A DNA stretch of 46,424 bases from Candidatus Thorarchaeota archaeon (GCA_016933575.1 JAFGAR010000160.1:1-46424), one strand, 5' to 3'. Positions 8,165 through 42,900 are shown, numbered from the stretch's first letter. Program-made: numbers and translations. The notes: generated from the sequence alone by a model not told the origin.

Positions 8165-9614
8165 GTAGTCCTAGGCGTACGCTAGACGCTTATCAAGATG
8201 GCTTTATGGTTTCTTGTGATTTGCGGCAAATCTCAAGATCCCGGAGCGAGTAAAATGTATACATGTACTGCTATAGTCGAGTAAATGAAGTATGAGTCCA
8301 AGTACATGTTCTCCAAATCTTTTGATAACTATACGTTTACCCACTACATTCAGATAGTAGAATAGCAACAAGGAAAAGGGCGTTATATGGAGTATCTGCT
8401 CCCAGTACACGTATGTTTTACGAGTACAGAAGTTAGTACACGCTATAGTGTATGAATACACGTTTATCCATTATCGATCGCTAGATCTTAGTTTAGAATG
8501 ATGGATCATTACGTTGATTCTATCAGGAACTACATGCCATCACTGGTATTTCATTCTCTGTAATACCCTGAAGCTACAGGTCTGCAACACCTTCTTGGAG
8601 TCCTATGGTGCGCTTGTCTTAGAATATGTCATAATTCTCAAGTCTGTTGGTTCTGTGATTGATTCTCTTCGATTTCTAGCCTGTATGCTTTCTAGCAGAA
8701 ATTTGCATAAACTATTACACTCTTTTGCACAAATAAATGTAAAATTATAAAAATTCCTTCCCTCAATTTTATGTTAGGCTATATAATTAGATGCACGCTT
8801 GAGTTAATAGTAAATGTACTATATGGTACATATTTGTACCATGCAGACATTTATTTACAATTAATTTACTTGTTATAATAATATATATACTAATAAGCAG
8901 GTATTCAATATAACCTCGGTGCTGGAAGAAAGAATCTCTTTCGATGGTTTTTTCTTCTCACCCAACACATCGCCATATACTCAGTTACTGTATCATATAC
9001 TCTGCTCGATTATTTTGTATGAAAATAACCCTGATTATCCTCGAAAAAGAGTACCAATACACAGTAATTGAGTATGGATTTCAATGCACTCGGGGTGAAT
9101 GGGAGATATCTGTATTTGAAAACCGAATACGCCTAATCCGGAGAGCTAAGGATATGAGCTACTCTATCGCTTGAAGTCTTTCAGATCCTACGATATTATA
9201 CTGCAAAGAACATTTATGAAACTCATTGCTTGATATATTAGATTTCCTTTGATTATGTGATATTATTACCTATTAGTAGGAATATAAAACAAATAATTAC
9301 AAATACATTTGATATTGGAGTGGAAATCCGGATTAACTATGATGAATTCTACCGAAGGATTTCATCGAAAAGTTGTGTTAATCAAGTGGTGGGGATAAGG
9401 GCTCACTATCCGATTTATTGATTGAAATTGAGGGATAAAACAGAGTAGTATGTTGGAGAATATGAAGTCACAAGTTCATTTTTATACCATCTATGATTTG
9501 TCTAGATGTGTCTCAGATACGCTAAGTTTAACTAAGACCATGCTCACAATGAAAAGCATGCATGTGTAAGCTGGTTCAAGTTATTCACATAGCGATCATA
9601 GGTAGGAAAACCCC
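8165..9614. promoter_or_regulatory. Long AT-rich divergent intergenic region with repeated GTAC-containing motifs
   Basis: No convincing ORF in 1.45 kb; AGTACAYGT-type motifs at 8259-8466; AT-rich tract ~8700-8910; inverted repeat ATGGTACA-TATT-TGTACCAT at 8823-8842. Confidence 0.55.
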
Positions 9615-9977
9615 ATGGTATCTATATTCATAATCGATGATGAACCGATTCTTCACAGGCTGTACAAGGATGTGTTCGCGATCAAAGGTCACGAGGTGGT
9701 CGCAGATGCATATGACGGTGAAGAGGCTGTTCAGAAGTATCATGAAATGGATCCCAAACCTGATGTACTAATTCTTGACCATCGCATGCCTAACAAAGAC
9801 GGCTTAGAGGCCATGAAGGAGATACTCAACATAGAGCCTGCCGCCAAGATAGTCTTCATCAGTGCTGATGCCAATGTTCGAGAAGAAGCAATGAAGAATG
9901 GTGCTATCAGTTTTGGACTCAAGCCTGTCACCATTCGGCATATGTTGGACTTGGTTGAAACAGCTGTAACAAATTGA
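9615..9977 (+). CDS. Stand-alone CheY-like response regulator receiver
   Basis: IIDDE, LILDHRMPNKDG (phospho-Asp), ISA, KP: all canonical residues present. Confidence 0.95.
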   Translation: MVSIFIIDDEPILHRLYKDVFAIKGHEVVADAYDGEEAVQKYHEMDPKPDVLILDHRMPNKDGLEAMKEILNIEPAAKIVFISADANVREEAMKNGAISFGLKPVTIRHMLDLVETAVTN

Positions 9978-10023
9978 TTCATTTAGAAAAACGACAATTA
10001 GAATCATAGACCCAACTGAATAG

Positions 10024-10392
10024 GTGAAACCTTTGAGAGTGGTGATTGCTGGTGATGTCCCCCTTCTAAAATCACTAGTAAGAATGGCAATTGAGGAAGC
10101 TGGGTATACGGTTATCGGTGAACCTGACAATGTGGAAGAACTATTAGCCATCTGTAGCTCCCATAAGGTCGGAATAGTGCTCCTTGACCTTTCTATCTCT
10201 GATTCTGAACGGATGAGAGTCATTGAGAAGATCCTGGATATCGACATGTACACTTCAATCATCGCAATATCAGAATTTGTCGAAGATGATAACGATCAAG
10301 TCCTATTTGCTGGAGCTAGAGGATTCCTACAGAAACCTTTCTCCATGTTCGACCTTATTGATATGATGAAGAAGGTTGAGCCAATTCTTTGA
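10024..10392 (+). CDS. Stand-alone receiver domain, atypical
   Basis: Receiver pattern VVIAGD, LLD, IS, GARGFLQKPF. The first acidic-pocket Asp is Gly and the P..DG loop is missing. Confidence 0.85.
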   Translation: MKPLRVVIAGDVPLLKSLVRMAIEEAGYTVIGEPDNVEELLAICSSHKVGIVLLDLSISDSERMRVIEKILDIDMYTSIIAISEFVEDDNDQVLFAGARGFLQKPFSMFDLIDMMKKVEPIL

Positions 10393-11145
10393 TCACTCAG
10401 GCAATCGTGCATCAGGATAGACTACTATTCCGTCGTTCTGTATTCGGAACATCACTGGTTTCATGACATGATTCGCTCCTCGTAACTTCACGACTCGGAG
10501 CGTGCGAATGTAATCCCCAGTGGAATAGATCATATCGAGTTTGATGACTCCATCTGAGATGAAGTATGGCATCTCATCATTCTGTGCTCCGGATAGCGTT
10601 CGAAGTTCGTGTGTCAGCAATATCGTTGAATCTTGAGATATTAGCTCTCTCATAAAACCGTAGACCATTTGTCGCACTTCGAATCGATTTCCTGCGAATT
10701 CTAGCAATGGACCTAGGCCATCGATAACAATATGCGATGCATTTGTTTCATTGGCTTTTTGCTTGACTAAGTCTGCCAATCTAGGCACTGTGAAGGGTTT
10801 CTCCCGAAAAAGAGGATGCTCAAATGCAATTAGGTAGTCATATCCTGATTCTCTTGGAACCAGACGCAATGTGCCACTTAGTATGCTCAGTTTCTTCTCC
10901 TTTATTGCAGTTTCAGGGTCCCATCCAAATGCCTGCATATCCTCCATGATGATATCTGAGGATTCATCAAGTGAAAGCAGTACTGCGGTTCCACCTCTAC
11001 GGATTGCATCAAAGATGAAATGCCAACAAATGATGCTCTTGCCTGTTCCAGGACCTCCTGCTATGAGCATCGAACGACCCTTGACATACCCCCCATTCAA
11101 TACCTTGTCTAGTCCCTCAATCCCACTACTGATTCTTTCCTTCAC
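10393..11145 (-). CDS. Single-domain KaiC-like (RAD55/RecA superfamily) ATPase
   Basis: SSGIEGLDKVLNGG, Walker A GGPGTGKS, Walker B IVIDG, DGVIKL, R.LRVVKLRG. Confidence 0.93.
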   Translation of the reverse strand: MKERISSGIEGLDKVLNGGYVKGRSMLIAGGPGTGKSIICWHFIFDAIRRGGTAVLLSLDESSDIIMEDMQAFGWDPETAIKEKKLSILSGTLRLVPRESGYDYLIAFEHPLFREKPFTVPRLADLVKQKANETNASHIVIDGLGPLLEFAGNRFEVRQMVYGFMRELISQDSTILLTHELRTLSGAQNDEMPYFISDGVIKLDMIYSTGDYIRTLRVVKLRGANHVMKPVMFRIQNDGIVVYPDARLPE

Positions 11146-11307
11146 CTTTCTGTCTCCTCAAGGAACACGTAGTCTATCATAGTTTAAGATATATTATTTG
11201 TTAGCGTAGCCTATTTAGGCGAACAAAACTACTAGAACCCTTTTGATTGCATCTCTTGGGTCATGTGGTTGCTTACTACATATCAGGCGAGAGAGTGAAG
11301 AGGAATA

Positions 11308-12894
11308 TTGACTGATAGTCCTGTGATTCCAGAATTTGCAATGTATGAGGACCGTATAACGAAGTCCGAGAGGAAAGAGATCGCTAACCGTCTATCTGTA
11401 GGATTTCGAACAGGAAAGGATCGTTTCCTTCACTTCTCAGATATCCTTTTGGAGTACATTGGAAGTGGAGAATGGACTAACCTAAGTGATGGCTTTCTCG
11501 CAATGTGTGCAAAAGCTGCATACCTACGAGGTATGTATGGATACAATCAGCTTCTTGCGAAAGGAAGTGAGAATATTCTCTGCAAAGGATATGCTGCAGC
11601 ATCATACTGCAGGCAGAGCTTGGATCCTCGGTGGTTGAACAATCTTAGGAACTATGTCAATCAGGTGTGGCAGTCCAAAGATTACATCGCTTTTGCTGAA
11701 TTGTCAGGACAACTCGCATCAATATTGATTGACTTGGGTTATACTGAAAGAGCCAAGACCGTTGCATCGGAGAGCATTGAAAAAGTCACCCAAGCTACTT
11801 CAAAGAACATAGCGATACGAAATAAGGTACAAGCAGCTCTTTTACGGCTTCGGATTCTGATGGCCAATGTGGATATCCAAGCAGGAGCGCGTGATGAAGC
11901 TTTGGTCAGACTGGATTCGGCAGAAGATACAGCTCGACTCCTGAATCACGACCTCGCTTTGACTGATGTCAGATATTATCGTGCTAAGATTCTTGAAGAA
12001 TCCCAAGAATACGATCGAGCAATGGATCTCCTGAATGCAGCTCTAAGGAAGTATGAACGAATGGGGTATCTTCAGGGTGTAGCTGATTCCAAGAACCTGC
12101 AAGGTGTCGTCCTCATGGAACGCGGATTCCATCAAGAGGCACGTGATCACTTTGAGGATATCCTCATTATTCAACAGCGATTGAACGATCAAGTTGGTCT
12201 AGCAAGAACCTTGATCAATGTGGGTGAGATCGATAGAGGGCTAGGTCAATTCGATCAGATGGAAACATACAACCAGAGAGCCTTGGAAATCAGTCAAGAA
12301 GCTGAATATATGCGTGGTATAGCAATATCAAAAATCAATCTTGGAGATATCGCTTTCCAAAGGGGTGACTTTGACAAAGCAATGCGGTACTATCAAGAGA
12401 GCATGGAAGTCGTCGAATGCTCCGGTATGAAGGACCTCCGCAATCTCATTGGCTTCCTCCTAGCTGACCTGCTGTTCGTACAAGAAAAAGCAGACAAAGC
12501 AATAGAAGCGTATGAAAGGGCGAGAATCAACGCTGAAGATGCCAGCTATCCTACCGAGGTCTTCAATGCAGAAGTCAGTGTAATCATAACTCAATTCGAA
12601 ACCGGTCGAGCAGTAGATTCCAGCCTAGCGAAGAAGATTGGGGATATTCTCGGGAATACAGATGCGTGGAAAGCCGCATCTGATTCCAGTATGATGAGAA
12701 ACCTGAGAGCTACGATATTTCAAGATAGATCTATTGAGGGTGGGATGTGCATCTTCTATGATCGCGAGAAGAATTTTGAATGCAGGGTGGACAGACAATA
12801 CTCTAGGATGGGATGTACTGGTAACCTATTCTGGAAAGGGATGATGTGTCCTTACTTCATCGAGTTTCTCGAGAAGCTTGGTGGTAATTCATAG
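11308..12894 (+). CDS. Tetratricopeptide repeat protein with C-terminal four-Cys domain
   Basis: About 40-aa helical repeats (VADSKNLQGVVL, LARTLINVGEID, IAISKINLGDIAFQRGDFDKAMRYYQES); C-terminal Cys cluster. Confidence 0.9.
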   Translation: MTDSPVIPEFAMYEDRITKSERKEIANRLSVGFRTGKDRFLHFSDILLEYIGSGEWTNLSDGFLAMCAKAAYLRGMYGYNQLLAKGSENILCKGYAAASYCRQSLDPRWLNNLRNYVNQVWQSKDYIAFAELSGQLASILIDLGYTERAKTVASESIEKVTQATSKNIAIRNKVQAALLRLRILMANVDIQAGARDEALVRLDSAEDTARLLNHDLALTDVRYYRAKILEESQEYDRAMDLLNAALRKYERMGYLQGVADSKNLQGVVLMERGFHQEARDHFEDILIIQQRLNDQVGLARTLINVGEIDRGLGQFDQMETYNQRALEISQEAEYMRGIAISKINLGDIAFQRGDFDKAMRYYQESMEVVECSGMKDLRNLIGFLLADLLFVQEKADKAIEAYERARINAEDASYPTEVFNAEVSVIITQFETGRAVDSSLAKKIGDILGNTDAWKAASDSSMMRNLRATIFQDRSIEGGMCIFYDREKNFECRVDRQYSRMGCTGNLFWKGMMCPYFIEFLEKLGGNS

Positions 12895-12962
12895 CTACAA
12901 AGCGACACCACTTATGTATATAAGGTGATTATATCAAATGCTCTTCACTAGGGGATCGTTGC

Positions 12963-14348
12963 ATGAGTACTACCGGTGGAATCCCTCCAAGCATAGAGGA
13001 AGTGCTGTCAGCCCAGAATAGTTTCATCTTGGTAGTACTGGGATCACCTGGTACAGGCAAGTCATTATTTGTACAAGAGATACTACGGAAATTCGATAAT
13101 TCTGTGATGATCATCACGAGTGCAGAGAATTATACGACAATAAACCAATATCTGTCTAAGGAAATCGATGGTTGGGAAAATCGGCATGTCACAAAGTCAT
13201 TTTCAAAGAAGATGGCGGGAGAGATGGCAGAGGAAGCGGTATTCGATCAACATATACAACAGATGCTTCAATTGGATAGTACCCCACCCACTGGCGATAT
13301 TGTGATTATTGACTCTTGGACTGATTTCATCGAACCGCTGGATACTACTCAAAGATATTTGACACAGCAAACATTGATCCATTCAGCTCGGAATGAGAGG
13401 AAGAAGCTAGTTCTCGTCACAGAAGGTAACTGGCAAGACCAGAAATCACTCTCGTTATTTCATTCAGCTGATGGAGTGATAAAACTCGAAAAGATTCGAG
13501 ATAATCAACGGATGTATAGACAGGTAGTTATCGAGAAGATGCGATCTCATCCCATAAACCAGGATTCCTTCTTGTTCACTCTTCATCATGGCAGATTTAC
13601 ATACATACCTTGGTATCAACATGAATATCCCGCCATAACCGTAGAAAGAGACCCAATCCCAGATGCTTCTCCTGAGTTTATGTCTACAGGGAATGCTAGT
13701 CTGGACCATTTGCTGTCTGGAGGATTTAAGAAAGGACATCTCACTTTGGTTGAAGTGGATGACCTCTCAGTACCCTATCTAGAAACGATATACATTCCCT
13801 TTCTTTCGAACCACCTGCAACAAGGACGACCTGCCATAATTCTGCTCCCTGAAGGCTGGTCACCTGAATCATTCTCAAAGAGTCTTACTCAGTTTGTTGA
13901 CAAGTCCCTTATTGAGGAACAGCTGGTGTATTTCGGTCGCCAAGCCTTAGGGACTCACTCCAACACCCGTGGAATCGATTTGGATCCTTGGAAGACTCTT
14001 CAAGAGATTCGATATGAATCAGGTGTCTTAGAACGGAAGTTCGATCATGAAGTAACAGAATTATTTGCTCTGGACACCTTGGAGAATATGTATGGTGCAA
14101 CTAACGTGAGAAGTCTAATGGCGGAGATCTCAGCTTCATTGTCCTCAACTCAACGCACAACAATATCCATTTTGAGTAGAGACCAGGAGATCAGGAGCGA
14201 GTCTATCTCACATCATGTTCATCTTAGAGTTCAGGAAATCAGTGGTGTGCTAAGTGTCTGTGGTGTCAATCCTAGAACGAACTATCTAGCAGTTCGCCAG
14301 ATACTGTCCAGCGGATTTCTTGATTACGATTTGCTACCGATTGTATAG
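12963..14348 (+). CDS. Two-domain KaiC/GvpD-like P-loop ATPase (second domain degenerate)
   Basis: N-domain has GSPGTGKS, IIDSW, ADGVIKL, IEKMRS. C-domain begins STGNASLDHLLSGGF but has no Walker A. Confidence 0.88.
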   Translation: MSTTGGIPPSIEEVLSAQNSFILVVLGSPGTGKSLFVQEILRKFDNSVMIITSAENYTTINQYLSKEIDGWENRHVTKSFSKKMAGEMAEEAVFDQHIQQMLQLDSTPPTGDIVIIDSWTDFIEPLDTTQRYLTQQTLIHSARNERKKLVLVTEGNWQDQKSLSLFHSADGVIKLEKIRDNQRMYRQVVIEKMRSHPINQDSFLFTLHHGRFTYIPWYQHEYPAITVERDPIPDASPEFMSTGNASLDHLLSGGFKKGHLTLVEVDDLSVPYLETIYIPFLSNHLQQGRPAIILLPEGWSPESFSKSLTQFVDKSLIEEQLVYFGRQALGTHSNTRGIDLDPWKTLQEIRYESGVLERKFDHEVTELFALDTLENMYGATNVRSLMAEISASLSSTQRTTISILSRDQEIRSESISHHVHLRVQEISGVLSVCGVNPRTNYLAVRQILSSGFLDYDLLPIV

Positions 14349-14358
14349 GTGATGCATT

Positions 14359-14736
14359 ATGACGAAGAACAAGATCCTGGTAGTGGATGATGAAGAAATA
14401 ACAACTGAATTGGCGAAGAAATTCTTGGAGCGCCATGGATTCGATGTCATTTGCGCCTATGATGGCGAAACCGCTTTGGAGCTAGCTGTATCACAAAGAC
14501 CTGATTTGATCCTTTTGGATGTGATGCTTCCAAAAATTGATGGTTTTGAAGTGTGCAGAAGAATCAAGAGAATGCAGGAATTCAAGTCGACACCAATTCT
14601 TCTCTTCACTGCGAAGGGGCTAAGCAAGGATATCAAAGAAGGCAAAGAGGCAGGAGCTGACGAATATATTATCAAACCATTTTCCGGAAAGGCACTGGTT
14701 GCTACCATAAAGAAGCATCTAAGATATGAGGAATGA
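14359..14736 (+). CDS. Stand-alone response regulator receiver
   Basis: VVDDE, LLDVMLPKIDG, FTA, GADEYIIKPF: canonical. Confidence 0.95.
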   Translation: MTKNKILVVDDEEITTELAKKFLERHGFDVICAYDGETALELAVSQRPDLILLDVMLPKIDGFEVCRRIKRMQEFKSTPILLFTAKGLSKDIKEGKEAGADEYIIKPFSGKALVATIKKHLRYEE

Positions 14737-15431
14737 GAGGAATCGATCTGATGACAGGAACCCCTGTGGAGAATCATTTGGCCTCTACAATAGTCTACAA
14801 TCTATTGAATCGGCCTCCCAGAGGGTATGTCTATCTCGTTATGGCATCTCAAGAAAGCCACTATGACCTCTTCATGACGACAATCATACGTAGTGCCCTT
14901 GACAACAAAATGAAGACACTCAATGTTGTAACTGAGGCTCGGAATCGCCAATTGATGGAGGATATGACAAAGATACAATCAGAGGACTTCCAGATACTTG
15001 AAGTCAGCTATGGACAGAAGATTCTAGGCAATCATACGTGTTCACCGCATCTTCATGAGATTAACATCATGATGCGAAGCCTAAGGAATGTCATTAACCC
15101 CAAGGTTGTTACGTTCGAAGCTTTGACTCCTTTACTGATTGATTTCTCTGCTCGAGATGTGGTTCAGTTCTTCAAGGAAAGTGTTGAAGAGAGCATCAAG
15201 AACGGATCAATTGAGTTCTACCTTATTCATGCGGACACAGCTGACTCGGTCACTATGAACCAGCTGTTCTCACTTGCTCAAGGCATTATCACACTAACGA
15301 CATCACGTGGCAAGAACTACCTTACAGTAAAGAAAGCAACAGGTATCGAGATGCCCTTCAATCCGATTGAGTATGTACCGAGTATGCAGGGTTCTGATCG
15401 AACGAGATGGGGTATCGAACTCGAATGGTAG
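14733..15431 (+). CDS. Inactivated KaiC/RecA-fold protein
   Basis: Strand/helix pattern matches KaiC-like domains (VVTFEALTPLL, AQGIITL, LTVKKATG) but there is no P-loop GKT/S. ATGA overlap with the upstream receiver. Confidence 0.7.
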   Translation: MRGIDLMTGTPVENHLASTIVYNLLNRPPRGYVYLVMASQESHYDLFMTTIIRSALDNKMKTLNVVTEARNRQLMEDMTKIQSEDFQILEVSYGQKILGNHTCSPHLHEINIMMRSLRNVINPKVVTFEALTPLLIDFSARDVVQFFKESVEESIKNGSIEFYLIHADTADSVTMNQLFSLAQGIITLTTSRGKNYLTVKKATGIEMPFNPIEYVPSMQGSDRTRWGIELEW

Positions 15432-15432
15432 C

Positions 15433-16125
15433 TTACTCGAAGTCGATTTGGATTCCTTCATCATCTAAATCGTCTTTCTTCATGGAATGAGAGAGGCGCT
15501 CTTCGAATATGTTCAGCACGTCTTCAAGTGGCTTCTCTGACGTATCTCTATCATCCACCGCAACTGGATTGATATGTTGTCTGACAAGCCTACAGCTCTC
15601 ATCATCCCAAGAGCACTCCTCCATGATCTCTTGTATTTTCCTGATATAGTAGCCTCTTTGATTGATCAGCTGCAAACTTCTATCTTCTAACGCACTTATT
15701 TGTCGATTAATCTTCTCAATTTCCTGGAGGAGGACACGTACTGCTCTCACATCATAGCTCTCTTTAGGTATGGATATTCGTGCGCGGATGGTTGTGATCC
15801 GTGTTTTATGTGGACGTAAATGAACAGCAAATGAGTTTGGCAGTATGGTGGTGGAAAGCCCAAACCCCGAACGCAATTTGTAGTATGTTCTCTCAGGGCC
15901 AAGACTTGTTTCACCTGCCTCGGTTTCCACGATCCTCGCATTCTCGAGGACCTCAAGATGCTTGATGATGACACGTGACGTGAAGCCAAGAGCTTTGCTA
16001 AGCTCATAAGGATAGTAAGGTCTCTGTGCTAGCAATCGAAGGATTCTCCTACGAGTGATATGACCTAGCGCTTTGAAAACAGTGTCTAGGTAATCTGTAT
16101 CCTTTCCCGAGCTGCTCAATTCCAT
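15433..16125 (-). CDS. ArsR-like winged HTH regulator resembling archaeal heat-shock repressor Phr (COG1777)
   Basis: LGHITRRRILRLLAQRPYYPYELSKALG...KHLEVLE...GPERTYYKL...ILPNSF plus C-terminal coiled coil, matching the Phr architecture as recalled. Confidence 0.85.
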   Translation of the reverse strand: MELSSSGKDTDYLDTVFKALGHITRRRILRLLAQRPYYPYELSKALGFTSRVIIKHLEVLENARIVETEAGETSLGPERTYYKLRSGFGLSTTILPNSFAVHLRPHKTRITTIRARISIPKESYDVRAVRVLLQEIEKINRQISALEDRSLQLINQRGYYIRKIQEIMEECSWDDESCRLVRQHINPVAVDDRDTSEKPLEDVLNIFEERLSHSMKKDDLDDEGIQIDFE

Positions 16126-20319: not shown

Positions 20320-21579
20320 TCAAGGTTCATCCGACAGATGTAGTGCGATATTGGCAATTGTCCCTTGTTTCCAATCATCAGGAACTCGGTTCTCGAACCA
20401 GAGATAACCTCCAAAATCCTCCAGGAGTCTCATGACGATGCTAAGCCCTAATCCAATGCCATCGGTACTCTCTGTTAGGAATCTACCAGACATTTTTGGT
20501 TTAAGCTCTTCAGGCATACCCATTCCTTTGTCAATGATTCCGACCCGTATGATGTTCGAGTCAGATTTCCATTCGTCTATCTCAATTACGATTTCATCAT
20601 CTCTATCATTCATAGATTTTATGGCGTTTGTTATCAAGTTTTGAAACACATCATGAAGAAGTTCATTGGCAAGGACATGGTGCTGTTTCTCTGATCGCGA
20701 TTTAACTTGAATATCCAGCTTCTTCTCTGGGAATGCCGTTCTGATAGTTGAGATGCTCTCTGCTATTGTGCTTTCTAGATTACATGGTTCTAGATCTTTG
20801 TCTCCTTTTGCAGTCAACACTCGTCTTACTCGATTTAGGAGGTTACTCGCAAAGCTTGCTTGATTCATAGCATCCTGCAGGATGGGGTATAACTTTGAAT
20901 GGTCATCCCATTTCATTTCCATCAGTTCTAATGCTATTGATAAATTTCCAATTGAACCCCGAATATCATGAAACAGTAAATCAAGAAGGAGGTCCGATCT
21001 CCTTCTTGCGCGATTACTATCTTCAAGTAGCATCGCATGCTGAATCGATAGACGCAGTGGAATGACAAACTCTCTTACAGCTTCTAGATATCTCTCTATT
21101 CTATCTGGTATTATTACGTTACTCACTTCAATGACCATTCGTGGAGTTCCTTCTAGGGTATAGAATAGAATTGACTTAGCATCTAGCTCATCGAGATGGT
21201 GTTTAATTTCATTACTAATGGATCTGTCAGGATTATGTATGTTGTAGTAGATTTCACCTTGCTCGACCACATAATTATAGAAATCATTGTTGACAAGATA
21301 CCTTGGAACCCATTTGCTTTGATTCACGAAGTATCGCAATGAGAAGAGTTCCCAAATACCGCTATGAAATTCTATAGCTAGTGAAGGTATTCCTCCCGTG
21401 AGTGTTGCTATTTCTTGCAGGATGGCTGCTAGGACGGTATTTGGATCAGAGCTTCTGAGAAGCTCGCCAAGGATGTATCGAAGCTGCGTGTAGTAGATTG
21501 AATTTCGCTCTAATTCACGCTGCTTTTCCTCTAGCTGTGGATCGTTTTTTGAGCTATCTTCTTTATGTCCTCCGCTCAC
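20320..21579 (-). CDS. Soluble sensor histidine kinase (coiled coil + GAF-like + HisKA + HATPase_c)
   Basis: H-box LFHDIRG, N-box FQNLITNAIK, G1 DKGMG, G2 GIGLGLSIV; no TM segment. GTG 21579 overlaps the upstream TGA (ORF track start 21594). Confidence 0.92.
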   Translation of the reverse strand: MSGGHKEDSSKNDPQLEEKQRELERNSIYYTQLRYILGELLRSSDPNTVLAAILQEIATLTGGIPSLAIEFHSGIWELFSLRYFVNQSKWVPRYLVNNDFYNYVVEQGEIYYNIHNPDRSISNEIKHHLDELDAKSILFYTLEGTPRMVIEVSNVIIPDRIERYLEAVREFVIPLRLSIQHAMLLEDSNRARRRSDLLLDLLFHDIRGSIGNLSIALELMEMKWDDHSKLYPILQDAMNQASFASNLLNRVRRVLTAKGDKDLEPCNLESTIAESISTIRTAFPEKKLDIQVKSRSEKQHHVLANELLHDVFQNLITNAIKSMNDRDDEIVIEIDEWKSDSNIIRVGIIDKGMGMPEELKPKMSGRFLTESTDGIGLGLSIVMRLLEDFGGYLWFENRVPDDWKQGTIANIALHLSDEP

Positions 21580-22594
21580 TGATAGACTCCCCATTTATCT
21601 CTGGATTCGGATATTTTCTGAAGTACATTATCTGGAACTGCGCTTGGGATATCTCCATGGTGGTCACATATGATATACCCCCCGCCAGATGCTGCCTCAT
21701 CAATGCATCTTTTGACCTCTGATTCAGCTCTTTCTTCGCTCCAATGAGTCATTGAGATATTGTCCAGATTTCCAATTAGAATCAGTTTCTTTCCATATTT
21801 CTGCTTTATTTCCCTGAGATTATCTGAATTGGATACAACAATTCCGGGAACTCCAACCTGCTCGATCAATGTAGGTATTAGTGTGGGAGTTTCACTACCC
21901 GCCATTGCAAATACAGCAGCTCCGTTTACAGATTTGTAATATTTCTTATCAGCTGCAAGGGACAGATGTTTGTACTCTGTCAACTTCATAATATGAGTTG
22001 ATGAAACAGGGTTGAAGAATGCTAACGCATGGAGTCCATCCTCGAAAAAGCTATTGGATAGATCAAGAGTATAATCGACTAAGTATTCTACGATTTGCTT
22101 TGCAATATCGGGTGTGTCTACGATGCACTCCATCCATGTTTCAAATCCAAATAACATCACTGGTAATGATAGAGGTGCGATTACTGCTGTAATAATGGGA
22201 ATCTCGGAACCTTTCTTCTCTACCATCATTCGATGTGCTTGGTGGACTATATCAAAGGTATGATGGTCGCTATCAGGTAGCTCAGCAGCAAGAAGTGCTT
22301 CTCCAGAGTCAAAGACAGGTCGTCCTGATTCAGGAGGACCGAACTGCTTGTGTAGTGTTTCTCCCCCAAATGCTTCGTACTCCTTAGCGGCATAGAAGAA
22401 TGGGTAAAGACAATCATGCTGAAATCTCTCCTGCAGGAGAATCTGGCCTTTTACTACATTCTCTGCATTTCCATAGTACTCATGCGAACTCATTCAAGTA
22501 TCTTTGCACCATGCTGAGTCATCAAGAGGAAGAGTGGAACCTTATCTGGCTCTTCAAAACTGACCGCTTTTACAAACCGTTCCAGAGCTTTCAC
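21576..22594 (-). pseudogene. UroD/MtaA-family protein, split by a 1-nt frameshift near 22494
   Basis: GTG 22594 gives MKALERFVKAVSFEEPDKVPLFLLMTQHGAKILE* (typical ER...PD.VP start of this family). The remainder (LIGNLD, GGGYII) continues from ATG 22493 in another frame. May be an assembly error rather than a true pseudogene. Confidence 0.8.
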
Positions 22595-23241
22595 TAGTGC
22601 TCCACTCCTACAAGATGCATACATTCTCTCGCAACGACGAGTGCAGTAGGTGCTGATGCATCAGCTCCTGTATGTTCGAACAGCTCGGGATCTATTGTGA
22701 AAGGAGCTCCTCCTACGAGAAGCTTGGGTTTCTTAGTCCATTTTGATGCGTCTATGGATTCCTTCAGCTTTTTTAGCTGCAGAACTGAGTTCATCATTAG
22801 CGCGGATACAGCTATAATATCCGCATTGTATTCTTGAGCATTTGATATGAATTTCTCAATGCTTACATTGACCCCAAGATCATACACCGCGAAGAATGGC
22901 ATGAGAAACTTCTTCACTAAATTCTTTCCAAGTGAATGATAGTCATCACTCATTGTCCCAAGAATGATCGTACCCAATTTAGCTGAACCCTCACCATTCT
23001 CATATTCAAAGCGATTGACAACTTCCTCGATAATCCTTGAGGCTACATAGATTATTGTTAGAGGGATTTTTTGAACCATCCACCTTCTATCAAGCTCATT
23101 GAGCATCTTCTCGATTACGATGACCATGTCTCGTTTTTGAAGATTGGCTTCGTCGAACCATCTAATGGTCGATTCTCTAAGGCCAGAGAGAACGAAATCT
23201 ATGACTTTGTCTATTTCTCTATCTGAAACGGGGGAACTCAT
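22594..23241 (-). CDS. Cobalamin (corrinoid)-binding protein
   Basis: Helical cap domain plus DYHSLGKNLV (DxHxxG), SALM and VGGAPF. Confidence 0.93.
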   Translation of the reverse strand: MSSPVSDREIDKVIDFVLSGLRESTIRWFDEANLQKRDMVIVIEKMLNELDRRWMVQKIPLTIIYVASRIIEEVVNRFEYENGEGSAKLGTIILGTMSDDYHSLGKNLVKKFLMPFFAVYDLGVNVSIEKFISNAQEYNADIIAVSALMMNSVLQLKKLKESIDASKWTKKPKLLVGGAPFTIDPELFEHTGADASAPTALVVARECMHLVGVEH

Positions 23242-33778: not shown

Positions 33779-33982
33779 TTAGAAAGGTTACCTTCCTAAC
33801 ATGGTAGAAAAGACAATAACCGGCAGCTCGTTTTACTAAAATCCTAGAGTTTAAATGCGTTCATGTTGGAGCTTCTGTCAGCAACTCGTGTGCGATGGTG
33901 TATCGAATGATGCGCTCATAATCGCTCTGTTCGGTCACCTTGATTGCAGGTACACTTCGCATGGATTGGGGGTTTCATAAGC

Positions 33983-36900
33983 TTGAGAAAAGGAGAGAGA
34001 GTATTTTCTCTGTTAGTCATAGTTCTTGTGCTCTTTGGACCATTCGTCGCAGTTTCAACGATACCTTCGTATCCGACTGCAGCTGATGGCCAGACAACAT
34101 ACTCGCCACCTGATTGGCATAGTCAAACCAAAGGTGAGACGAATCCAGAAACGGACACTGAGAAATCAGAGGCGTCCGTTACTAATCCACCTACTAAAAG
34201 TACTGAAAGCAAGGATGGGGAAATAAACCCACTTCTGGATCTCTTCTCTGGATATGAGAGTGCTGTCACAAAAGTTGCGCATCCCAAGACTGAATTCTAT
34301 CAATCCTCTGGGGAGGGCTTACATCTTGAATATTCTGTTGAAGGAAACCGGCTCATCATTACAGGTACCATCGGCTCCTATAACCAAGTAACATATACCA
34401 TTGGTAGTAGGAACTATCAGACCGTCGTAATTGGGAACACTGAATTGACCCATACATACGGAGAGCCAATCCTTCCCTATGTGAAGCAGATCATTACTTT
34501 GCCTCTGGAGGCAAATGTAGTTTCGTATGGAGTTCGTAATGAGGTCAGATATCCAATCTCGGATCTAGCGTTGATGCCAGGACCTAAACCTCTGAGCGTT
34601 CATCAACTTGACCCCTCGATTGGACTTCCTTTCTGTGATCCCGTACACTATGCATCCAATCAATTCATGCCCTCGAATGTTCTTGATTTCGACATTGTAG
34701 GAATTGATGGTGATCTCTGCTTATCATTGACACTCCATCCACTTCAGTATAATCCAGCACAGATGCTCGGCAACTTACTACTTCACTTTGAGGTTGAGAT
34801 CAAATTCGACGACTCTGTCCAGCTAAATGACTTTCTAATGCCAACTTCACCCGAGCCTCTTGCTTTCGGTGATGGCGAGGGATACCTGATAGTTGCTGAT
34901 GAATCTTATATCCCATATATCACGAATTTTGTGGATTGGAAGACATACATAGGTTTCAATATGCATGTGACTTCCATCCAAGATATCATGACTACCTCGC
35001 CTGGAAGAGATGCTGCTGAACAGCTTCGAAATTATCTAATTGAGTCTTATAATAATGATGATATCCAATACGTTCTTCTTGTTGGAGATGGGGACATAGT
35101 TCCCGCCCGAGAAGTCATGGACCCAGCTCATGCAGGTCAAGGATTGGACAATGGAACTGAACCCAGTGATCTCTATTTCGAATGTCTTGATGGTGATTGG
35201 GACGCTAATGGGAATGGTCTTTATGGGGAATATGGTGATGATGTTGATTTCTTCCCGGAATTGATGGTTGGAAGAATTCCAGTACAAGCCCCAGAAGAGG
35301 CACAAGATGTCCTTGACGCAATCGTAATCCTCGAGAGCAGTCCAGAACCCGGGGACTGGATGAATGATGTCCTTCTTCTTGGACCTAATTGCTTTGCGTA
35401 TGGTGATGGTTGTGCGATGACTGAAGCTGAACTGAACCAACCATACCTAATCGGTTCATTCTTCGATGTTGATCGTCTTTATCCAACGGATGGTACCTTA
35501 TCTGATGCCAACGTCATAGCTCGGATAAACCAAGGAGTTGGCATAATCGACTTCTTCGATCACGGTGCATATAATGTCTGGGTCAGTGCTCTCACTGTAC
35601 CAGAGACACTATCACTAGCAAATGGATATCGTACACCATTCGCTTTTGCCATGGCCTGTGAAACAGCTGCGTTCGACTATGAGGCTGGAGAGCCAACGAT
35701 CGCTGAAGCATTCTTTAGGAACCCCAATGGAGGTGCATGTGCCTATATAGGCGCTACTCGCATCGCTTGGGCAGGTCATCATGCTTTTGATGGACTGCAC
35801 AACAGATTTTGGGGTTACTTCTTCGATTCGGCTTTGAACCACTATTGCGCTTCTCCAAAGATGGCATTGCGTGATGCAACCATCGAAATGGCAACGACAT
35901 ACGATATGAATGATGACATTTCCAGAGAAACAGTGATTCATGCTATCTACTTCGGAGACCCATCAATGCAGCTATATTGGAAGAATGAAGTTGAGATCTA
36001 CGCGCCTCCTTGCGAGACAAATGAATACATAGAGATCGGAGTCAATTCTACCACATTCAATGGATTACCGCTATTCAGCAATGTAGGAGTTGTTGTTTCA
36101 GATCCTTTGGGAACCATCCTAGTCGATGATCTTTTCATGTGCGATTGGGGTTGGTTTGATGTACCATTCGTAACCAGTGAGAATCCTGGCTCCTACGAGG
36201 TTACCGCTACCTATACTGAGCCTTTCGAGTATACGACAGAAAGATTCTTCGAAGTAGGTCTCGCTGACATCCAGGTTTCATTGGATTCTCAACCCATCTT
36301 TGATACAATTCTTGATTTCTCCGGCTACAGCAGTGTAGATGGTATTGGTACTGCATACCTTCTTGATGCCGAAGGAGGAGTTCTGTCTTCAACGACGTTC
36401 GATGTTATTGATGGTGTCTATGCAGATGGAATTCACATCAATGGATTCGGACATCTCTCTTTGTATGTACGAATTGTATCTCCGTCCGGAACTGGAGCCA
36501 ACACTCTCCATTTTGATGTTATGAGAGGATCAGTTCTAATCATTCCTGATGAGTCAGGAGATTGGGGGCCCTGGTACCCAGGAGGCTGGGTTGATGACAA
36601 TGCAGGAGATTCAACCAACTATGGAGATATATATCAAGCATTGAAGGACGAGTTCAATGTTGACATCTATCGACCCAGATATGAGATGACACCTGATTTG
36701 GCTCTCCTCCACATGTACGATGCAGTGATTGTGTCTGTTGGTGATCACATGAGTACGCCCTTGATAGCTTCAGATAGCTATCTACTCGATGTGTTGATGA
36801 CATATCACAATGAAGGTGGAAACCTCTTCTTCGAAGGATGTTCCATCCTCACACCTCTTGAATCACAATTTGGCGGGATATTCTCATCCTTCTTCCATGT

Positions 36901-39900
36901 CGAGTTGGACCAGCGTATCACCAACACAGGCGCACTATATCTCGAGAATACACCTCATGCAATTACGTCAGGTATTCCTTCAACGATTTGGCTTGAAGAT
37001 GGACTCGGATCACCATTTGCAGAAGTTCTGATACCGACCTCAGGTGCTATCCATGTAAGCGGATACTCAGGGTCTTATGAAGGTGGCACCGCGATTGCGG
37101 CTCTGAACCCATCCGTTTCAGAGGGAGGAGTCGTCTTCTTTGGATTCTCAGTCGATGCCATTAGTGACGAAGCAACTCGCGACAGAATCATTCAGAATGC
37201 AGTGAATTTTCTGCTCTATCCGAGTCTCGATTGCCAGCTTTCTGACTATGCGCTACGAACAGGAGAGAGTGAGGTCATCGATATCGTCGTTTCTGATAGC
37301 AGAACAGGGACACCTGTCGAAGGAGCCCTTGTTATCGCTGAAGGTTGTGGAGTATCCACATGGAATATCACCGATGCTAGCGGATACGCATCATTCCAAG
37401 TTAGTCCCTCATTCCAAGGATATATCTTTGTGAACATAACCAAGGAGGACTATCTAGGCTATGAAACGTATATCATCTGCTATGATGTCCCAGTTATCGG
37501 TCTGGATATTCAGCCTGAATATATTGAGAGAGGATCTGCAAGCGTAGTGTCTGTCTACTGCTACGACTATTATGAAGGGTATCCCTTGGAGAACTGCTAC
37601 TTGGTTCTTGATGGATGTGGTGTATTTGATGAAGGTTTGAGTGATGAGTTCGGATATGCTGAATTCACTTTGCATCCAGAAACCAGTGGGTTGATCTCCG
37701 TCAGTGCGACACTGAATGGATACATCGAAGCCGTGGATTTCGTGGGCGTTCGTATTCATGCAGCAGTCATAAGAGGGTACTTCACTGAAGCTCCAGATCT
37801 TGCTTGCTGGGATCTAATCAACTCGAATTGGGCTGACTACGGTGAGATGCCAATCCTAATAGATTACACTTCACTGAGTATTCCGCTGATCACACTGAGT
37901 GACTTGGAAGCACTAAATCCAGATGTTCTTATCATGGCTTACACGTATCAGCCTCTGGATCAGTTTGAGATCGAAGCCATCATAGAATTCACACGACAGG
38001 GTCATGGCCTTGTTGTCACAAGCTCTTGCGTCACATATCACCCCGAACTACTTGGCTCCTTCCTGGGATTGAGCCCAACTATAGATTGGACATACAACTC
38101 TGCGATAGGCATTGGCTTCGAATCCTTGGATCAATATGATCCCGATCACCCGATCTTCGTAGGCATTCCAGACCCATACTCTGTAGGTTATCACCTCTCA
38201 TATCTCCCAGAATCCACACATTGGGATAGCTCCGCCTTGGCAGGTGGAACCTACGTGGCACTTGATTCAGGTCCAGAGGATGTTGCTGCTATCATAACCT
38301 ATCGGGGTATGGTGTTCTGCTCGAATATACCTGAATATCAATCCAATCGCCAAGATGTGCAACTTATGTATAATATGATTGGGTGGTCCAACTATGAGAT
38401 TCCTGAGCATGACCTAAGTGTGAGTATGAACGTTCCACGAGTCGTGGATCCTGGAACCGAAGTAACGGTAGAAGTTTTGGTAAGAAATCAAGGATTGAAT
38501 ACCGAATATGATGTCGCATGTACGCTGTACCTCGATGGATTTGAGGTAGCTTCTGAGGTCATTCCTGTCTTAGACAATGGATCATACTATTCACTCTCTT
38601 ATCTATGGACTCCGCTTTCCGAGGGTCTTTACACCTTTGAGGCGATTGTAGATCCTGTAATGGGCGAGGAAGTCCTCACGAACAACTATGTGGAGAGAGT
38701 TGTAAATGTCTTCGAGGTACCATTGGATGGCCCCGTAGCTATTTTCCAAGTCTGGAATCCATGGGGGCATCCATCGAATCAAGAGATTCTTGATACTTGG
38801 ATGGTTGAATACGATATCTACGACGATCTATCTATGGGCATGATCGACCTAAGCGGGTATGCCAAGGTGATCATTTCATCAGACCAACCAGATTGGTTCA
38901 TGGATGGAGTTTATGCGAACATGGGTTGGTTTGAGGACTATGCGGCAAGTGGAGGCATTCTCGAAGTTCACGCTGCAACGAATTACTACTGGGTGGATGG
39001 ATTGCTTCCAGGTGGTGCATATTATGTTCCATATGTTGACGATCTCATCTCAATCACAGACCCATCTCATCCGATCCTGACAAATCCCAATATAATCACT
39101 GACGAGGAGCTTGATTATTGGAGCGCTTCAGTTCATGGATATGTTGACTCACTTCCAGGTGGATCACAGATCATTCTGGAAACTGATAGTGGATATCCTG
39201 TTCTTATAGAGCAGGCATTTGGGATGGGAAGCATTGTGATCTCCACACAAACCCTTGAGTGGGGCTTCGCACGTGACAAGAGTAGGATTCTAGAGAATGT
39301 GCTTCTCTATACAGCTGTAACACCTGAGCACGATATCGCAGTCCGCCTAGATGTGGTAGATAGAGTTGGTCCAAATGAATGGACGTTGATTACAGGTACT
39401 CTCATCAATCGGGGATTGAATCCAGAATCAGACATACCCTTCTCGCTGTATGTAGATGGCATTGAAGTGAATGCGACCATGGTCATACTCCTTAATCCTA
39501 GTGAGTCCATCTCTTTGAGCTACTGGTTTATGTCAGATGTCGAATATACTGCTGAGATCGTTGCATTCGCTGAGCCAGTTCCTGAAGAGGAGAATATTGC
39601 CAACAACTATGCATCAGCATTTCTCCTTGTTCAAGAATTCCATGACTACTATATGACAGAGTATAGTCCTGAGTGGCTTGATGCCAAGACCAATGGATTC
39701 AATCTATACCTCTATGGGGATGATATCAGTGTGGGACTTGGACTGCCTTTCTCATTTCCGTTCTACGATGATATCTTCGATGTGGTGTATATCAGTAGTA
39801 ATGGATGGCTATCCTTCGCGAATACGGATCCATGGCAATGCTTTACTCCTGACTGGCCTACGGATGATCCTGCATATCGATACTCATTAGCTCCGTTCTT

Positions 39901-42900
39901 CGCAGACCTCCAAGCTGAGGAAAATGTCTATGCATGGATTACCGAGGATTGGGTTGTGATTCAGTATGACAACTATCGACACCTCTCAGGAGATCTCATG
40001 GGTACTTTCCAAGTAGTTCTCCACAGGTCGGGCATCATCCAGTTCAATTACCTGGAGATCTATCAACCTGTTGAGTGGGATATCCCGACGGTTGGGCTGA
40101 ACTACGGAGATGGCGTCTATGGACCAGTTTTCGGTGGTAGTGGTCTCACAGGAGTGACTAACTTTGGTCTCCTGTTCACATATGAGCTACCAGAGCATGA
40201 GATCATGGTACAGTTGAATGTTCCAGAATATGTCAATCCTGGTGAGGTCGTCGTGGTCGAGATTCTAGTTACCAACTATGGTCTGTCAGATGAGTCTGAT
40301 GTGACAGTCAATTTCTACATCGATGAAGAAGTGGTACTCACAGAGATGATTCCCTACATTGAGTCCTACTCGACCTGTGGCATCTATTTCACATGGGAAC
40401 CTCCGAGTGAATCAGTCTATCTTCTAGAGGTCTTTGTAGATCCTGTGGATGGAGAAACGAACATCGAGAATAACTATGATTCAGTTCTTGTTCAAGTGAC
40501 GGAGCTATTCGTTATCTTGGATCCGAGTGATATGGACATCATTGAGGGAGCGCATGTTCTTGTAACATACCTCCTGGCTAACCCGGACAACCTTCTTGGC
40601 ATTGACATCTTTGTGAATGGTGAGTTTATTTCGTATGTTCCTGACCAGGGTTTGAACCAAATCCTTGTTCCGGTATTCGGGAATGGATACAACGAAATCC
40701 AGCTCATAGCGTGGTGGGATGACAATATCACGGCTTGGGACTCTGTAATCGTGGAGTCTGTCAATATTGAACCCATTGCGATTCTCGAGCCTGGTGACTA
40801 CATCAACTATCTAATCTCCTATGAATGGGGTGGTTATATAGAATACAATTTCACCTTTGGAGAGTATGTATCTGAGTATGAGGTTGAGGTTCAGTACATA
40901 TACCGTTTCTATGACAATGAAGGCACTGACTATACAGAAGTCTACTACATGTATGTGAATGTACTCAACGGATATATCAGCTGGTCGGATGTTGGCTGGG
41001 ACTATCAGAACTTCTTCCCATTCACAGGACTGATCACCTCTGATGTGATCTCTCACGCATCGAGTGGAGATATGACCACATTCTACTATTGGAATGATTT
41101 GTATTTCATAGACCATTTGAGCGAGTGGAGAGGGCTGATGGTATGGACGGGATACGGAGTCTTAGGTGATTTCGAGTGCAGTGTCTTGGAATCGAATGGC
41201 CTACTCGTTGAGATGTACTTCGGTATGCCGACCCCCTATGCCTATGGTGAGGTTGTCGACACCAATCTGATTCCAGGCTTCAATCCTAATGTGCTTGAAA
41301 TCATCGAACCGACATCAGGTCAGTTGATAGAAGGAGGGTTAGTACTCGTTGACTACGAGGTCACGAATCCAGAAACTCTGTTGCTGATTGATGTTTGGGT
41401 GAATGACGCCTTCATCTATACCACAACATACACAGAAACGACATCACTCTATGTGCCTGTATTTGCTAATGGGTCGAATACCATTGCTCTTATCGCACTA
41501 TGGCAAGATGGCACTGCAGCAGTTGTGAATAGGACATTCATCTCTGAGGGAGTCGTGCCCCTCGCGGCACTGCAGCCAGGTGACTATCTCAATTTCAGAA
41601 TAGAGAGCTATGAATACATCAGTGACTTCAACTTCACCTTCGGGGAGATGATTACTGAGTTCGAAATCTATGCTACTTGTGACTTTCAATTCATTTCACC
41701 AGGAGGAGAGATCACGACAGCAGCATTCGAGTTGATCGTCAATACTCTCAATGGGTACATCTCCTACTCTGACTTTGGCTGGGAAACCTATCACTTCATG
41801 TTCTTCACAGGGATCTCCTCACCGAACATGATTCAATCATACGGTGAGATAGGCGATTCAGCCCCATTCTTCAGGTGGGAGCAGATTCTGACCATTGATG
41901 GACCCATAGCATGGGATGGCGAAGCAGCATGGATGCTATCCTCGGAGAGCGATGACATCTTTGCTCTAGCCTTGCAATCAAACGGGTTGCTGTACATGTT
42001 CGATTCGATGGATCCAACAACCTACGGATTCGGATTTATGACAGACACGAATCTGATTCCTCCATTTGATAATGTGCCTCCTGCTTGGGTCACGTTGCCA
42101 GAAGATCAGTATCTTGGACCTGGAGCATCTTTGTATTATGACCTAGATGCTATCGATCCAGCAGGTATTGATTCATGGTGGATTGATGATACGACCAATT
42201 TCGCAATCGATGCAGATGGTGTTGTCACGAATCTTTCGCCATTGGAAGATGGCATCTATCCGATCACTGTGTGGGTCAGTGACACCTTGGGAAACGTCCT
42301 CACAGGTAACTTCAATGTGATCGTAGAAACGACGATCGGTCCGATATTCATCGATGGCGATGATGACTTCATCGAGTATGGATTCCCAGGGTCTGGAACT
42401 CAGGAGGATCCATACATCATTGCTGGATATGTGATTGAATGCACTGATGTCTATATACCCTGTATTGAGATTCGCAATACACAAGCATTCTTCGTCGTTG
42501 AGGGGTGCATTCTGACAGCATTGTATGGTGTACCTGTGGTCTTGCTCACAAATGTCGAACATGGAATTCTTCAGAATAACATCATCACAGGTGGTGCTTT
42601 TGGTATTCTGATGGAGTTCTGTGTGTCTACCATGGTCATGGATAACACCATCTATGGCACAGATTTCGGTATCCTACTCTATGCAGCAGAATTCTGTCAG
42701 GTGATCGGCAATGATTGCTTTGAGAACATGGATGGGATCTTACTCTCTGAAAGCGCATTCTGTGAGATAATCGACAATCAGTGTGTGATGAACGAGAATT
42801 CAGGCATCGCATTGAACGGTACTACATACGAGTGCAATATCAGTGACAACTATTGCGAGGGCAATTTCGCTGGTATCTATGGCTCGTTCGCTAGTAACAT

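Follow-up and report, generated by a model that had tools for sequence, protein, structure and literature searches.

Archaeal gene neighborhoods that combine KaiC-like ATPases with inactivated KaiC homologs (iKaiC) in signaling contexts were reportedly described by Makarova, Galperin and Koonin in 2017 (mBio 8:e01959-17). KaiC-like ATPases of archaea have been proposed as main signaling hubs, and almost none of them has a defined set of partners. A locus of this type is considered here: seven contiguous signaling genes at positions 9615–15431 of a 46,424-nucleotide stretch of DNA from a Candidatus Thorarchaeota archaeon (GCA_016933575.1, JAFGAR010000160.1:1–46424), the whole of which is referred to below as the window. 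The cluster encodes three receivers (R1, R2 and R3), a protein built of tetratricopeptide repeats (TPR) and three KaiC-fold proteins (KaiC1, dKaiC and PLless); its receiver–TPR genes are kept almost throughout one family of Asgard archaea, and its three KaiC-fold genes are present or lost together.

Neighborhoods of the archaeal KaiC/iKaiC kind bring together active KaiC-like ATPases with inactivated KaiC, receiver, TPR and helix-turn-helix (HTH) proteins, encode no output enzyme and are presumed to signal through protein contacts (PMC5847659), and the present locus resembles them in each of these respects. In other archaea the same domain partners are found within one polypeptide, in regulators of the iKaiC–REC (Methanosarcinaceae), REC–DUF835(iKaiC), REC–MEDS(iKaiC) and TPR–REC types, the last as TPR–TPR–TPR–REC, where REC is the receiver domain (PMC5847659, Table 2), and because these domains are joined there it may be supposed that receiver, dead KaiC and TPR components act together when separately encoded. 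The account that we consider fairly probable, together with the mechanism proposed below, is that of a two-layer locus specific to Thorarchaeaceae, with a core of a conserved upstream element, R1, R2 and the TPR protein, and an accessory, all-or-none KaiC trio that would work with R3.

A receiver–TPR core and an all-or-none KaiC layer

All seven open reading frames (ORFs) of the cluster were confirmed, each with a domain call from Pfam, NCBIfam or a fold model, and the succession of signaling genes listed in a first-pass annotation of this DNA was recovered in full. The core genes lie on the plus strand and comprise R1 (9615–9977; Response_reg, 6.5e-22), a canonical stand-alone receiver, R2 (10024–10392; Response_reg, 2.5e-15), a degenerate receiver, and the TPR protein (11308–12894; TPR_12, 3.9e-22), a TPR solenoid with a four-cysteine tail. 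The accessory layer comprises KaiC1 (10393–11145, minus strand; PF06745, 6.8e-46), a single-domain KaiC-like ATPase, and, on the plus strand, dKaiC (12963–14348; KaiC 2e-12 and GvpD_P-loop 3.9e-6, both in the N domain), a two-domain KaiC/GvpD-like protein, and PLless (14733–15431), an inactivated KaiC fold that has no Pfam match. Between the last two, also on the plus strand, lies R3 (14359–14736; Response_reg 7.4e-30, PhoB receiver 7.8e-35), an OmpR/PhoB-type receiver that has no output domain.

Full and reduced forms of the locus were compared in 32 loci with sufficient flanking sequence. KaiC1, dKaiC and PLless were all present in 15 of these and none was intact in the other 17, among which no intact copy of KaiC1 occurred; no locus retained one or two of the three in intact form. 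R1, R2 and the TPR protein were kept in all 32, full-length wherever the contig permits. Three loci were caught while decaying, with the three KaiC genes falling together: fragments of KaiC1, dKaiC and PLless remain in one reduced locus (G027) and a PLless fragment alone in another (G155), R2 and the TPR gene being intact in both, and in a decayed locus outside the 17 (L084) KaiC1 is truncated, dKaiC is gone and PLless is broken, while the TPR protein, R3 and a neighboring winged helix-turn-helix (wHTH) gene are intact, as is R2 so far as the contig covers it. The trio is not contiguous, and since the TPR gene separates KaiC1 from dKaiC the joint loss cannot be put down to one simple deletion.

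An unrooted maximum-likelihood tree of the TPR protein implied eight changes between the full and reduced states, at least six of them forced by well-supported branches. Because the deepest branches are held by full loci and remnants of the KaiC genes exist, the simplest interpretation is that a full ancestral locus was reduced repeatedly, the direction of change being deduced from a tree without a root. This pattern marks the KaiC trio as a single unit that can be dispensed with, and such concerted presence and loss is what mutually dependent subunits would predict; the earlier proposal that the KaiC-fold proteins act together is therefore supported by 15 loci with all three, 17 with none intact and at least six independent switches between the two states. 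The same comparison shows that the KaiC proteins are not the hub of the system, since about half of the family keeps R1, R2 and the TPR protein intact in their absence, and on gene content the KaiC layer is accessory to a receiver–TPR pathway. Closely related genomes that carry the same receiver–TPR core, with or without a complete KaiC trio, amount to a natural experiment.

The KaiC-fold proteins

Residue-level checks of the receivers and of the KaiC-fold proteins were made on alignments of 15 orthologs. KaiC1 scores 156.9 bits against PF06745 (cut-off 26.6) and matches KaiC in the PDB at 3.8e-40, aligning over its full length with both the CI and the CII domain, and its Walker A (GGPGTGKS) and Walker B motifs are invariant. 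The NCBIfam model for ArlH (NF052589) reaches 66 bits where the cut-off is 215, and that for RadB (TIGR02237) 17.7 bits where it is 172.4; by profile score the KaiC-like ATPases of the cluster group with KaiC and not with RadB or ArlH. An in-frame stop interrupts the KaiC1 ortholog (9694–10446) of one otherwise full locus (L033, genome G146), and reflects either early decay or a fault of the assembly.

Residues 22–207 of dKaiC score 47.4 bits with the KaiC model and 27.3 bits with the GvpD_P-loop model (cut-off 24). Walker A and B are present in its N domain, and the C domain has no P-loop (no GxxxxGK[ST]) and is KaiC-like by hhalign against KaiC1 (E 1.5e-6). dKaiC is thus predicted to join an active N domain to a dead C domain, as had been read from the DNA at first.

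The profile of PLless found no match in a sequence search of the PDB. An AlphaFold2 (AF2) model built from the 15-ortholog alignment has a predicted local distance difference test (pLDDT) score of 84.9 and a predicted template modeling (pTM) score of 0.84, and Foldseek aligned this model with KaiC, with the Pyrococcus KaiC-like proteins PH0284 and PH0186 and with FlaH (template modeling (TM) scores 0.64–0.72, E ~1e-11), so that the KaiC fold claimed for PLless in the first-pass annotation is upheld. A conserved ASQ[DE]SHYD stands in place of the P-loop, and as modeled PLless is a KaiC/RecA fold from which the P-loop has been lost, that is, an iKaiC. The family is a small one: its profile gave just 21 matches (E <= 0.001) in 1.84 billion representative proteins, and PLless matches neither DUF835 nor MEDS in Pfam.

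Receivers and the TPR protein

R1 keeps all five receiver residues, the acidic pair (DD), D54, S83 and K103 being invariant, and shares 64–97% identity across genera. R2 is atypical, as had been noticed at once, for the Mg2+-binding acidic pair has given way to G-[D/E] in most orthologs and to AGI and GGS in two; despite this loss it retains the phospho-acceptor Asp, the S/T and the Lys, and it is fast-evolving (38–93% identity). In R3 the five receiver residues (DD, D, S/T, K) are again invariant, and the protein is similar to the receivers of OmpR-type regulators such as RpaB (1.1e-29).

Every one of the 15 full loci has an intact R3, but in 10 of the 17 reduced ones the gene is missing or disrupted, a pattern that fits partial dependence on the KaiC layer. 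The ATGA overlap by which R3 was said to be coupled to PLless is indeed present at 14733–14736 but is kept only in the closest clade, the start of PLless lying 5–70 bp past R3 elsewhere in the family. Given that limited distribution, and because residues 1–17 of PLless are unconserved and modeled at low confidence, its true start may be the ATG at 14751. A prediction of the R3–PLless complex returned a score of 0.00, which counts neither for nor against binding. The idea that R3 and PLless make up a split REC–iKaiC regulator whose halves are obliged to stay together was weakened, as R3 outlives PLless in seven reduced loci.

The AF2 model of the TPR protein is all-helical (pLDDT 91.3), and its fold search gave generic TPR matches only, the best being LGN and a TPR subunit of the APC/C, with Rap structures at ranks 38–45 (TM 0.38–0.46). 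At its C-terminus a C-x10-C-x10-C-x10-CP motif is encoded at 12748–12849 on the plus strand, and the four cysteines (C481, C492, C503 and C514) are invariant in 32 of 32 orthologs, from full and reduced loci; a search of the ESM Atlas recognized no module matching this tail. From the model a scaffold role is plausible, but the protein cannot, on the evidence of gene content, serve solely as scaffold of a KaiC assembly, because it persists intact alongside R1 and R2 where the KaiC genes are gone.

Distribution and gene order

The TPR protein was found in 71 of 86 Thorarchaeaceae genomes, spanning all 16 genera, and, in a phylum-wide Asgard sample, in 65 of 76 genomes of the family and in none of 224 genomes from 29 other families; judged by this gene the locus is restricted to Thorarchaeaceae. 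PLless occurs in 37 of the 86 family genomes and in 12 of the 16 genera when remnants are counted, and orthologs of dKaiC (42–79% identity) in 31 of the 76. dKaiC and PLless co-occur genome-wide, the sole exception being a contig-end case, and 34 of 35 genomes with an intact PLless carry the TPR protein, the exception again being broken by a contig end. In other Asgard families, two-domain relatives of dKaiC at ~28% identity are common, and their genes stand in unrelated contexts without receivers.

The seven genes stand in the same order and orientation in all 14 family loci fetched around dKaiC (one of them ended by a contig edge and one with a frameshifted KaiC1), and, to the extent that the contigs allow, the same order was seen in 30 Thorarchaeota loci from GenBank. 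The synteny envisaged for relatives at the outset is thus kept throughout Thorarchaeaceae, but the locus is not shared with the Loki, Heimdall and Bathy lineages. The syntenic block also takes in the wHTH gene, a 110-aa ORF (orf110), a DUF389 gene and a LysE gene downstream and often a geranylgeranyl-reductase-like (GGR) gene upstream. No description of this gene set with an optional, all-or-none KaiC layer was found in the literature searched.

Distant members of the PLless family, likewise without a P-loop, are encoded on two other Asgard contigs. On one of these (L103, GCA_054387915.1) a histidine kinase, a receiver, an AsnC-type HTH protein, a KaiC, two small ORFs and an iKaiC follow one another on one strand; on the other (L054) a TackOD1–HTH gene and an iKaiC are adjoined by a convergent KaiC. 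Joint action of KaiC, receiver and TPR proteins is supported by this recurrence of iKaiC–KaiC–HTH(–REC) associations in other Asgard lineages as well as by the fusions in other archaea. Both contigs are also rich in Arf/Ras-like small GTPases.

The upstream element

About 450 bp 5' of R1 lies a conserved non-coding DNA element of ~165–260 nt (8965–9161 in the window, plus strand, the orientation of R1). It was detected by nhmmer in 24–26 of 32 Thorarchaeaceae loci, in the orientation of R1 and in full and reduced loci alike, and in genus g5 an inversion has relocated the element, R1, R2 and the TPR gene as a single block. The element carries inverted boxes, CATACTCAG ... TGAGTATG and CTGTATTCGA-N5-TGAATACAG, and scans for these boxes elsewhere in the window gave nothing specific. 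An Rfam scan of the whole window, the element included, found no match, and RNAalifold gave no convincing consensus fold for the element (-2.5 kcal/mol). The element probably serves as an array of operators, or else as an RNA without defined structure. A 76-aa ORF at 8944–9174 was ruled out as a gene, its tblastn matches in other loci being riddled with stop codons.

Neighboring regulator and kinases

Profile scans of the ORFs found no kinase or DNA-binding domain inside 9615–15431, and to that extent the first-pass annotation was right to report neither a histidine kinase nor a DNA-binding output; beyond these limits both statements fail. A conserved ArsR/Phr-like wHTH gene (15433–16125, minus strand; HTH_5 1.5e-9, NF053602 Phr-type 2.1e-18) starts 1 bp past the cluster and converges on PLless. 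Of the full loci 14 of 15 have it next to the cluster, and of the reduced loci 14 of 17; one full locus (G055) lacks it, as does genus g12. This gene is a candidate output of the cluster, and its adjacency is weak evidence for such a role because orf110, DUF389 and LysE are equally syntenic.

A gene for a histidine kinase of 424 aa with a HATPase_c match (20320–21594) lies 4.9 kb downstream of the cluster, and among five relatives a kinase was near the locus only in G146, which represents the closest genus. Since the cluster contains no HATPase_c domain and the nearby kinase is confined to the closest genus, its receivers are, as far as gene content tells, orphans. Orphan receivers are common in archaea (PMC5847659), and the genomes compared have 11–30 HATPase_c matches each.

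The kinase gene lies directly downstream of genes for a B12-binding corrinoid protein and a URO-D/MtaA-like protein (region 20320–23241), an arrangement suggestive of a sensor operon with a methyl or cobalamin link and, in most relatives, with no relation to the cluster. As a general cognate kinase of the cluster it was rejected, for it groups with the corrinoid and MtaA-like genes and, among the relatives checked, only the closest genus has it near the locus. Further along the window, at 33944–44665, there is an ORF of 3573 aa that had been read as a giant surface protein.

A proposed mechanism and the evidence against it

There is reason to think of the locus as a signaling pathway with an optional modulator. 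Phosphoryl groups would come from histidine kinases encoded elsewhere in the genome, and R1 and R2 would act by binding to the TPR protein, in which the cysteine tail may contribute a metal or redox input. KaiC1, dKaiC and PLless would join in a single ATP-dependent complex, built of both active and dead RecA-fold units and comparable with the CI and CII rings of KaiC, and this assembly, coupled to R3, would tune the core pathway, for example in its threshold, duration or memory, the neighboring wHTH protein being the most likely output. A single assembly of active and dead units would be the simplest account of the mutual dependence indicated by the pattern of loss. The gating of such hetero-oligomers by receiver phosphorylation, a phosphatase activity of the TPR protein and the behavior of a timer, all put forward at first, are conjectural. 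In ArlH, a KaiC-like protein, autophosphorylation alters the oligomeric state and the binding of partners, as cited in PMC10983859. The proposal supplies a testable list of partners for a KaiC-like ATPase, with KaiC1, dKaiC and PLless as an assembly, R3 as its receiver and R1, R2 and the TPR protein as the pathway modulated, and it would place dead RecA-fold subunits in signaling within the archaeal group closest to eukaryotes.

Several observations weigh against this account. R3 persists without any KaiC gene in seven reduced loci and is therefore not strictly dependent on KaiC, and a phylogenetically independent-pairs test for R3, with too few pairs, gave 3–4 concordant and 0 discordant (p 0.125). 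The catalytic Glu–Glu of KaiC is Asp–Glu in the KaiC1 of the window and Asp–Gln in most orthologs; because of this substitution KaiC1, which was at first taken for an intact ATPase and whose Walker motifs bear that out, is better called a predicted ATPase of uncertain activity. Gene order alone could have been inherited, and cannot prove function, because the synteny runs on into unrelated genes, and all of the conservation is confined to one family.

The sample itself calls for caution. Every genome compared is a metagenome-assembled genome, and the bin from which the window derives (85.5% complete, 6.9% contaminated) holds a second syntenic copy of the whole neighborhood, from the GGR-like gene to LysE, on another contig (C166:76000–91519), with 45–79% protein identity to the window copy and a frameshifted KaiC1. 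The TPR tree places the window copy with genus g14 and the second copy with genus g1, and for this reason two Thorarchaeota are probably mixed in the bin, which then does not represent two paralogous loci in one cell. A search of sequencing runs listed this DNA in the probable source metagenome alone and in no RNA run.

Alternative explanations

The two-layer account has to be set beside other explanations of the same genes, of which the first is a mechanism of the GvpD type. In haloarchaea GvpD lowers the amount of the activator GvpE, and dKaiC, together with KaiC1 and PLless, might similarly be an ATP-dependent remover or antagonist of the adjacent wHTH protein, with the receivers setting the timing. 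That dKaiC exceeds the GvpD_P-loop cut-off, that its relatives in other Asgard families score higher still with this model (43 bits), that 28 of 32 loci have the wHTH gene directly beside the cluster and that distant genes of the PLless family also lie beside HTH regulators are all consistent with such a role. The KaiC model nevertheless outscores GvpD on the same residues of dKaiC, and the scan of the window ORFs turned up no gvp gene (a genome search for gvpA was uninformative, because no control genome matched). In addition, the wHTH gene stays behind in reduced loci that have no KaiC genes, is missing from a full locus and a whole genus, and is no more tightly linked than the other downstream genes; on balance we regard an antagonist of this type as unlikely.

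A bolder form of the two-layer account would make the trio, with one member active, one half-dead and one fully dead, a hetero-oligomeric, ATP-driven KaiC switch or hourglass that works without KaiA and KaiB, is read through R3, is plugged into a redox- or metal-sensing receiver–TPR pathway and has been discarded at least six times. An Asgard archaeon would then possess a KaiC timer complete in itself, a reading that we think a long shot.

It is also conceivable that the genes form no functional module and are neighbors merely through the inherited gene order of Thorarchaeaceae, each belonging to an unrelated pathway. The extension of synteny beyond the signaling genes, to GGR, orf110, DUF389, LysE and pcp, and the restriction of the comparisons to one family are what this explanation would predict. 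It leaves unaccounted for the repeated, concerted loss or decay of exactly the three non-contiguous KaiC-fold genes with the TPR gene between them left intact, and it sits poorly both with the recurrence of the iKaiC–KaiC–HTH–REC association in other Asgard lineages and with the domain fusions of other archaea (PMC5847659), so that we consider it improbable.

A circadian or hourglass clock like KaiABC would be suggested by the presence of KaiC-family proteins, by the two-domain architecture of dKaiC and by the likeness of R3 to RpaB-type receivers. KaiA was, however, not found in the genome, at 85.5% completeness, and the only KaiB-like ORF (118 aa) scores 23.5 bits, below the cut-off of 27, and lies on another contig (C5) beside a different KaiC. 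In KaiC both domains bind ATP, but the second one of dKaiC is dead, and the organism lives in sediment, all of which makes a clock of this kind very improbable. The KaiC on contig C5 (12696–14372), which the KaiB-like ORF precedes, is a canonical-looking two-domain protein (242 and 107 bits, with one TAG in the second match).

Least credible is a housekeeping RecA-fold role (RadB repair or ArlH control of the archaellum) or anti-virus defense, for which the RecA fold of the proteins and the structural match of PLless to FlaH could be cited, since the ArlH and RadB models fall far under their cut-offs, archaellin was not found in the genome at its 85.5% completeness (the earlier report of neither KaiA nor an archaellum gene thus extends beyond the window), PADLOC returned generic TPR, P-loop and wHTH matches and no defense-system match, and about half of the family does without the system.

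Comparison with known systems

The pairing of a TPR solenoid with single-domain receivers recalls Bacillus Rap with Spo0F or ComA, and Rap is among the fold matches of the TPR protein; those matches are no better than for any TPR protein, though, and the cysteine tail has no counterpart in Rap. With haloarchaeal GvpD, dKaiC shares a two-part build, a similar size, an N-terminal KaiC-like P-loop domain and a profile score just over the cut-off, but it differs in lacking a gvp context in the window and in being better described by the KaiC model.

Cyanobacterial KaiC is matched in the full-length alignment of KaiC1 with CI and CII and in the two tandem KaiC-fold domains of dKaiC. The cyanobacterial clock, too, uses receiver-like domains, in the N-terminus of KaiA, in CikA and in RpaA. 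The present locus departs from it in that KaiA and a credible KaiB were not found, in that one domain and one whole protein have no P-loop, and in the replacement of the Glu–Glu pair by D–E/Q.

Compared with the REC–iKaiC and TPR–REC regulators of other archaea, the domain partners are the same but are encoded here by separate genes, PLless has no DUF835 or MEDS match, and R3 can outlast PLless. In composition the locus resembles the archaeal neighborhoods of KaiC and iKaiC genes, and it is a variation on this known KaiC/iKaiC–receiver theme. It is distinguished from them by a gene set specific to Thorarchaeaceae, with a four-cysteine TPR protein restricted to the family, by a tiny PLless family that occurs only in Asgard-type gene contexts, and by KaiC genes that form an optional, all-or-none layer upon a receiver–TPR core.

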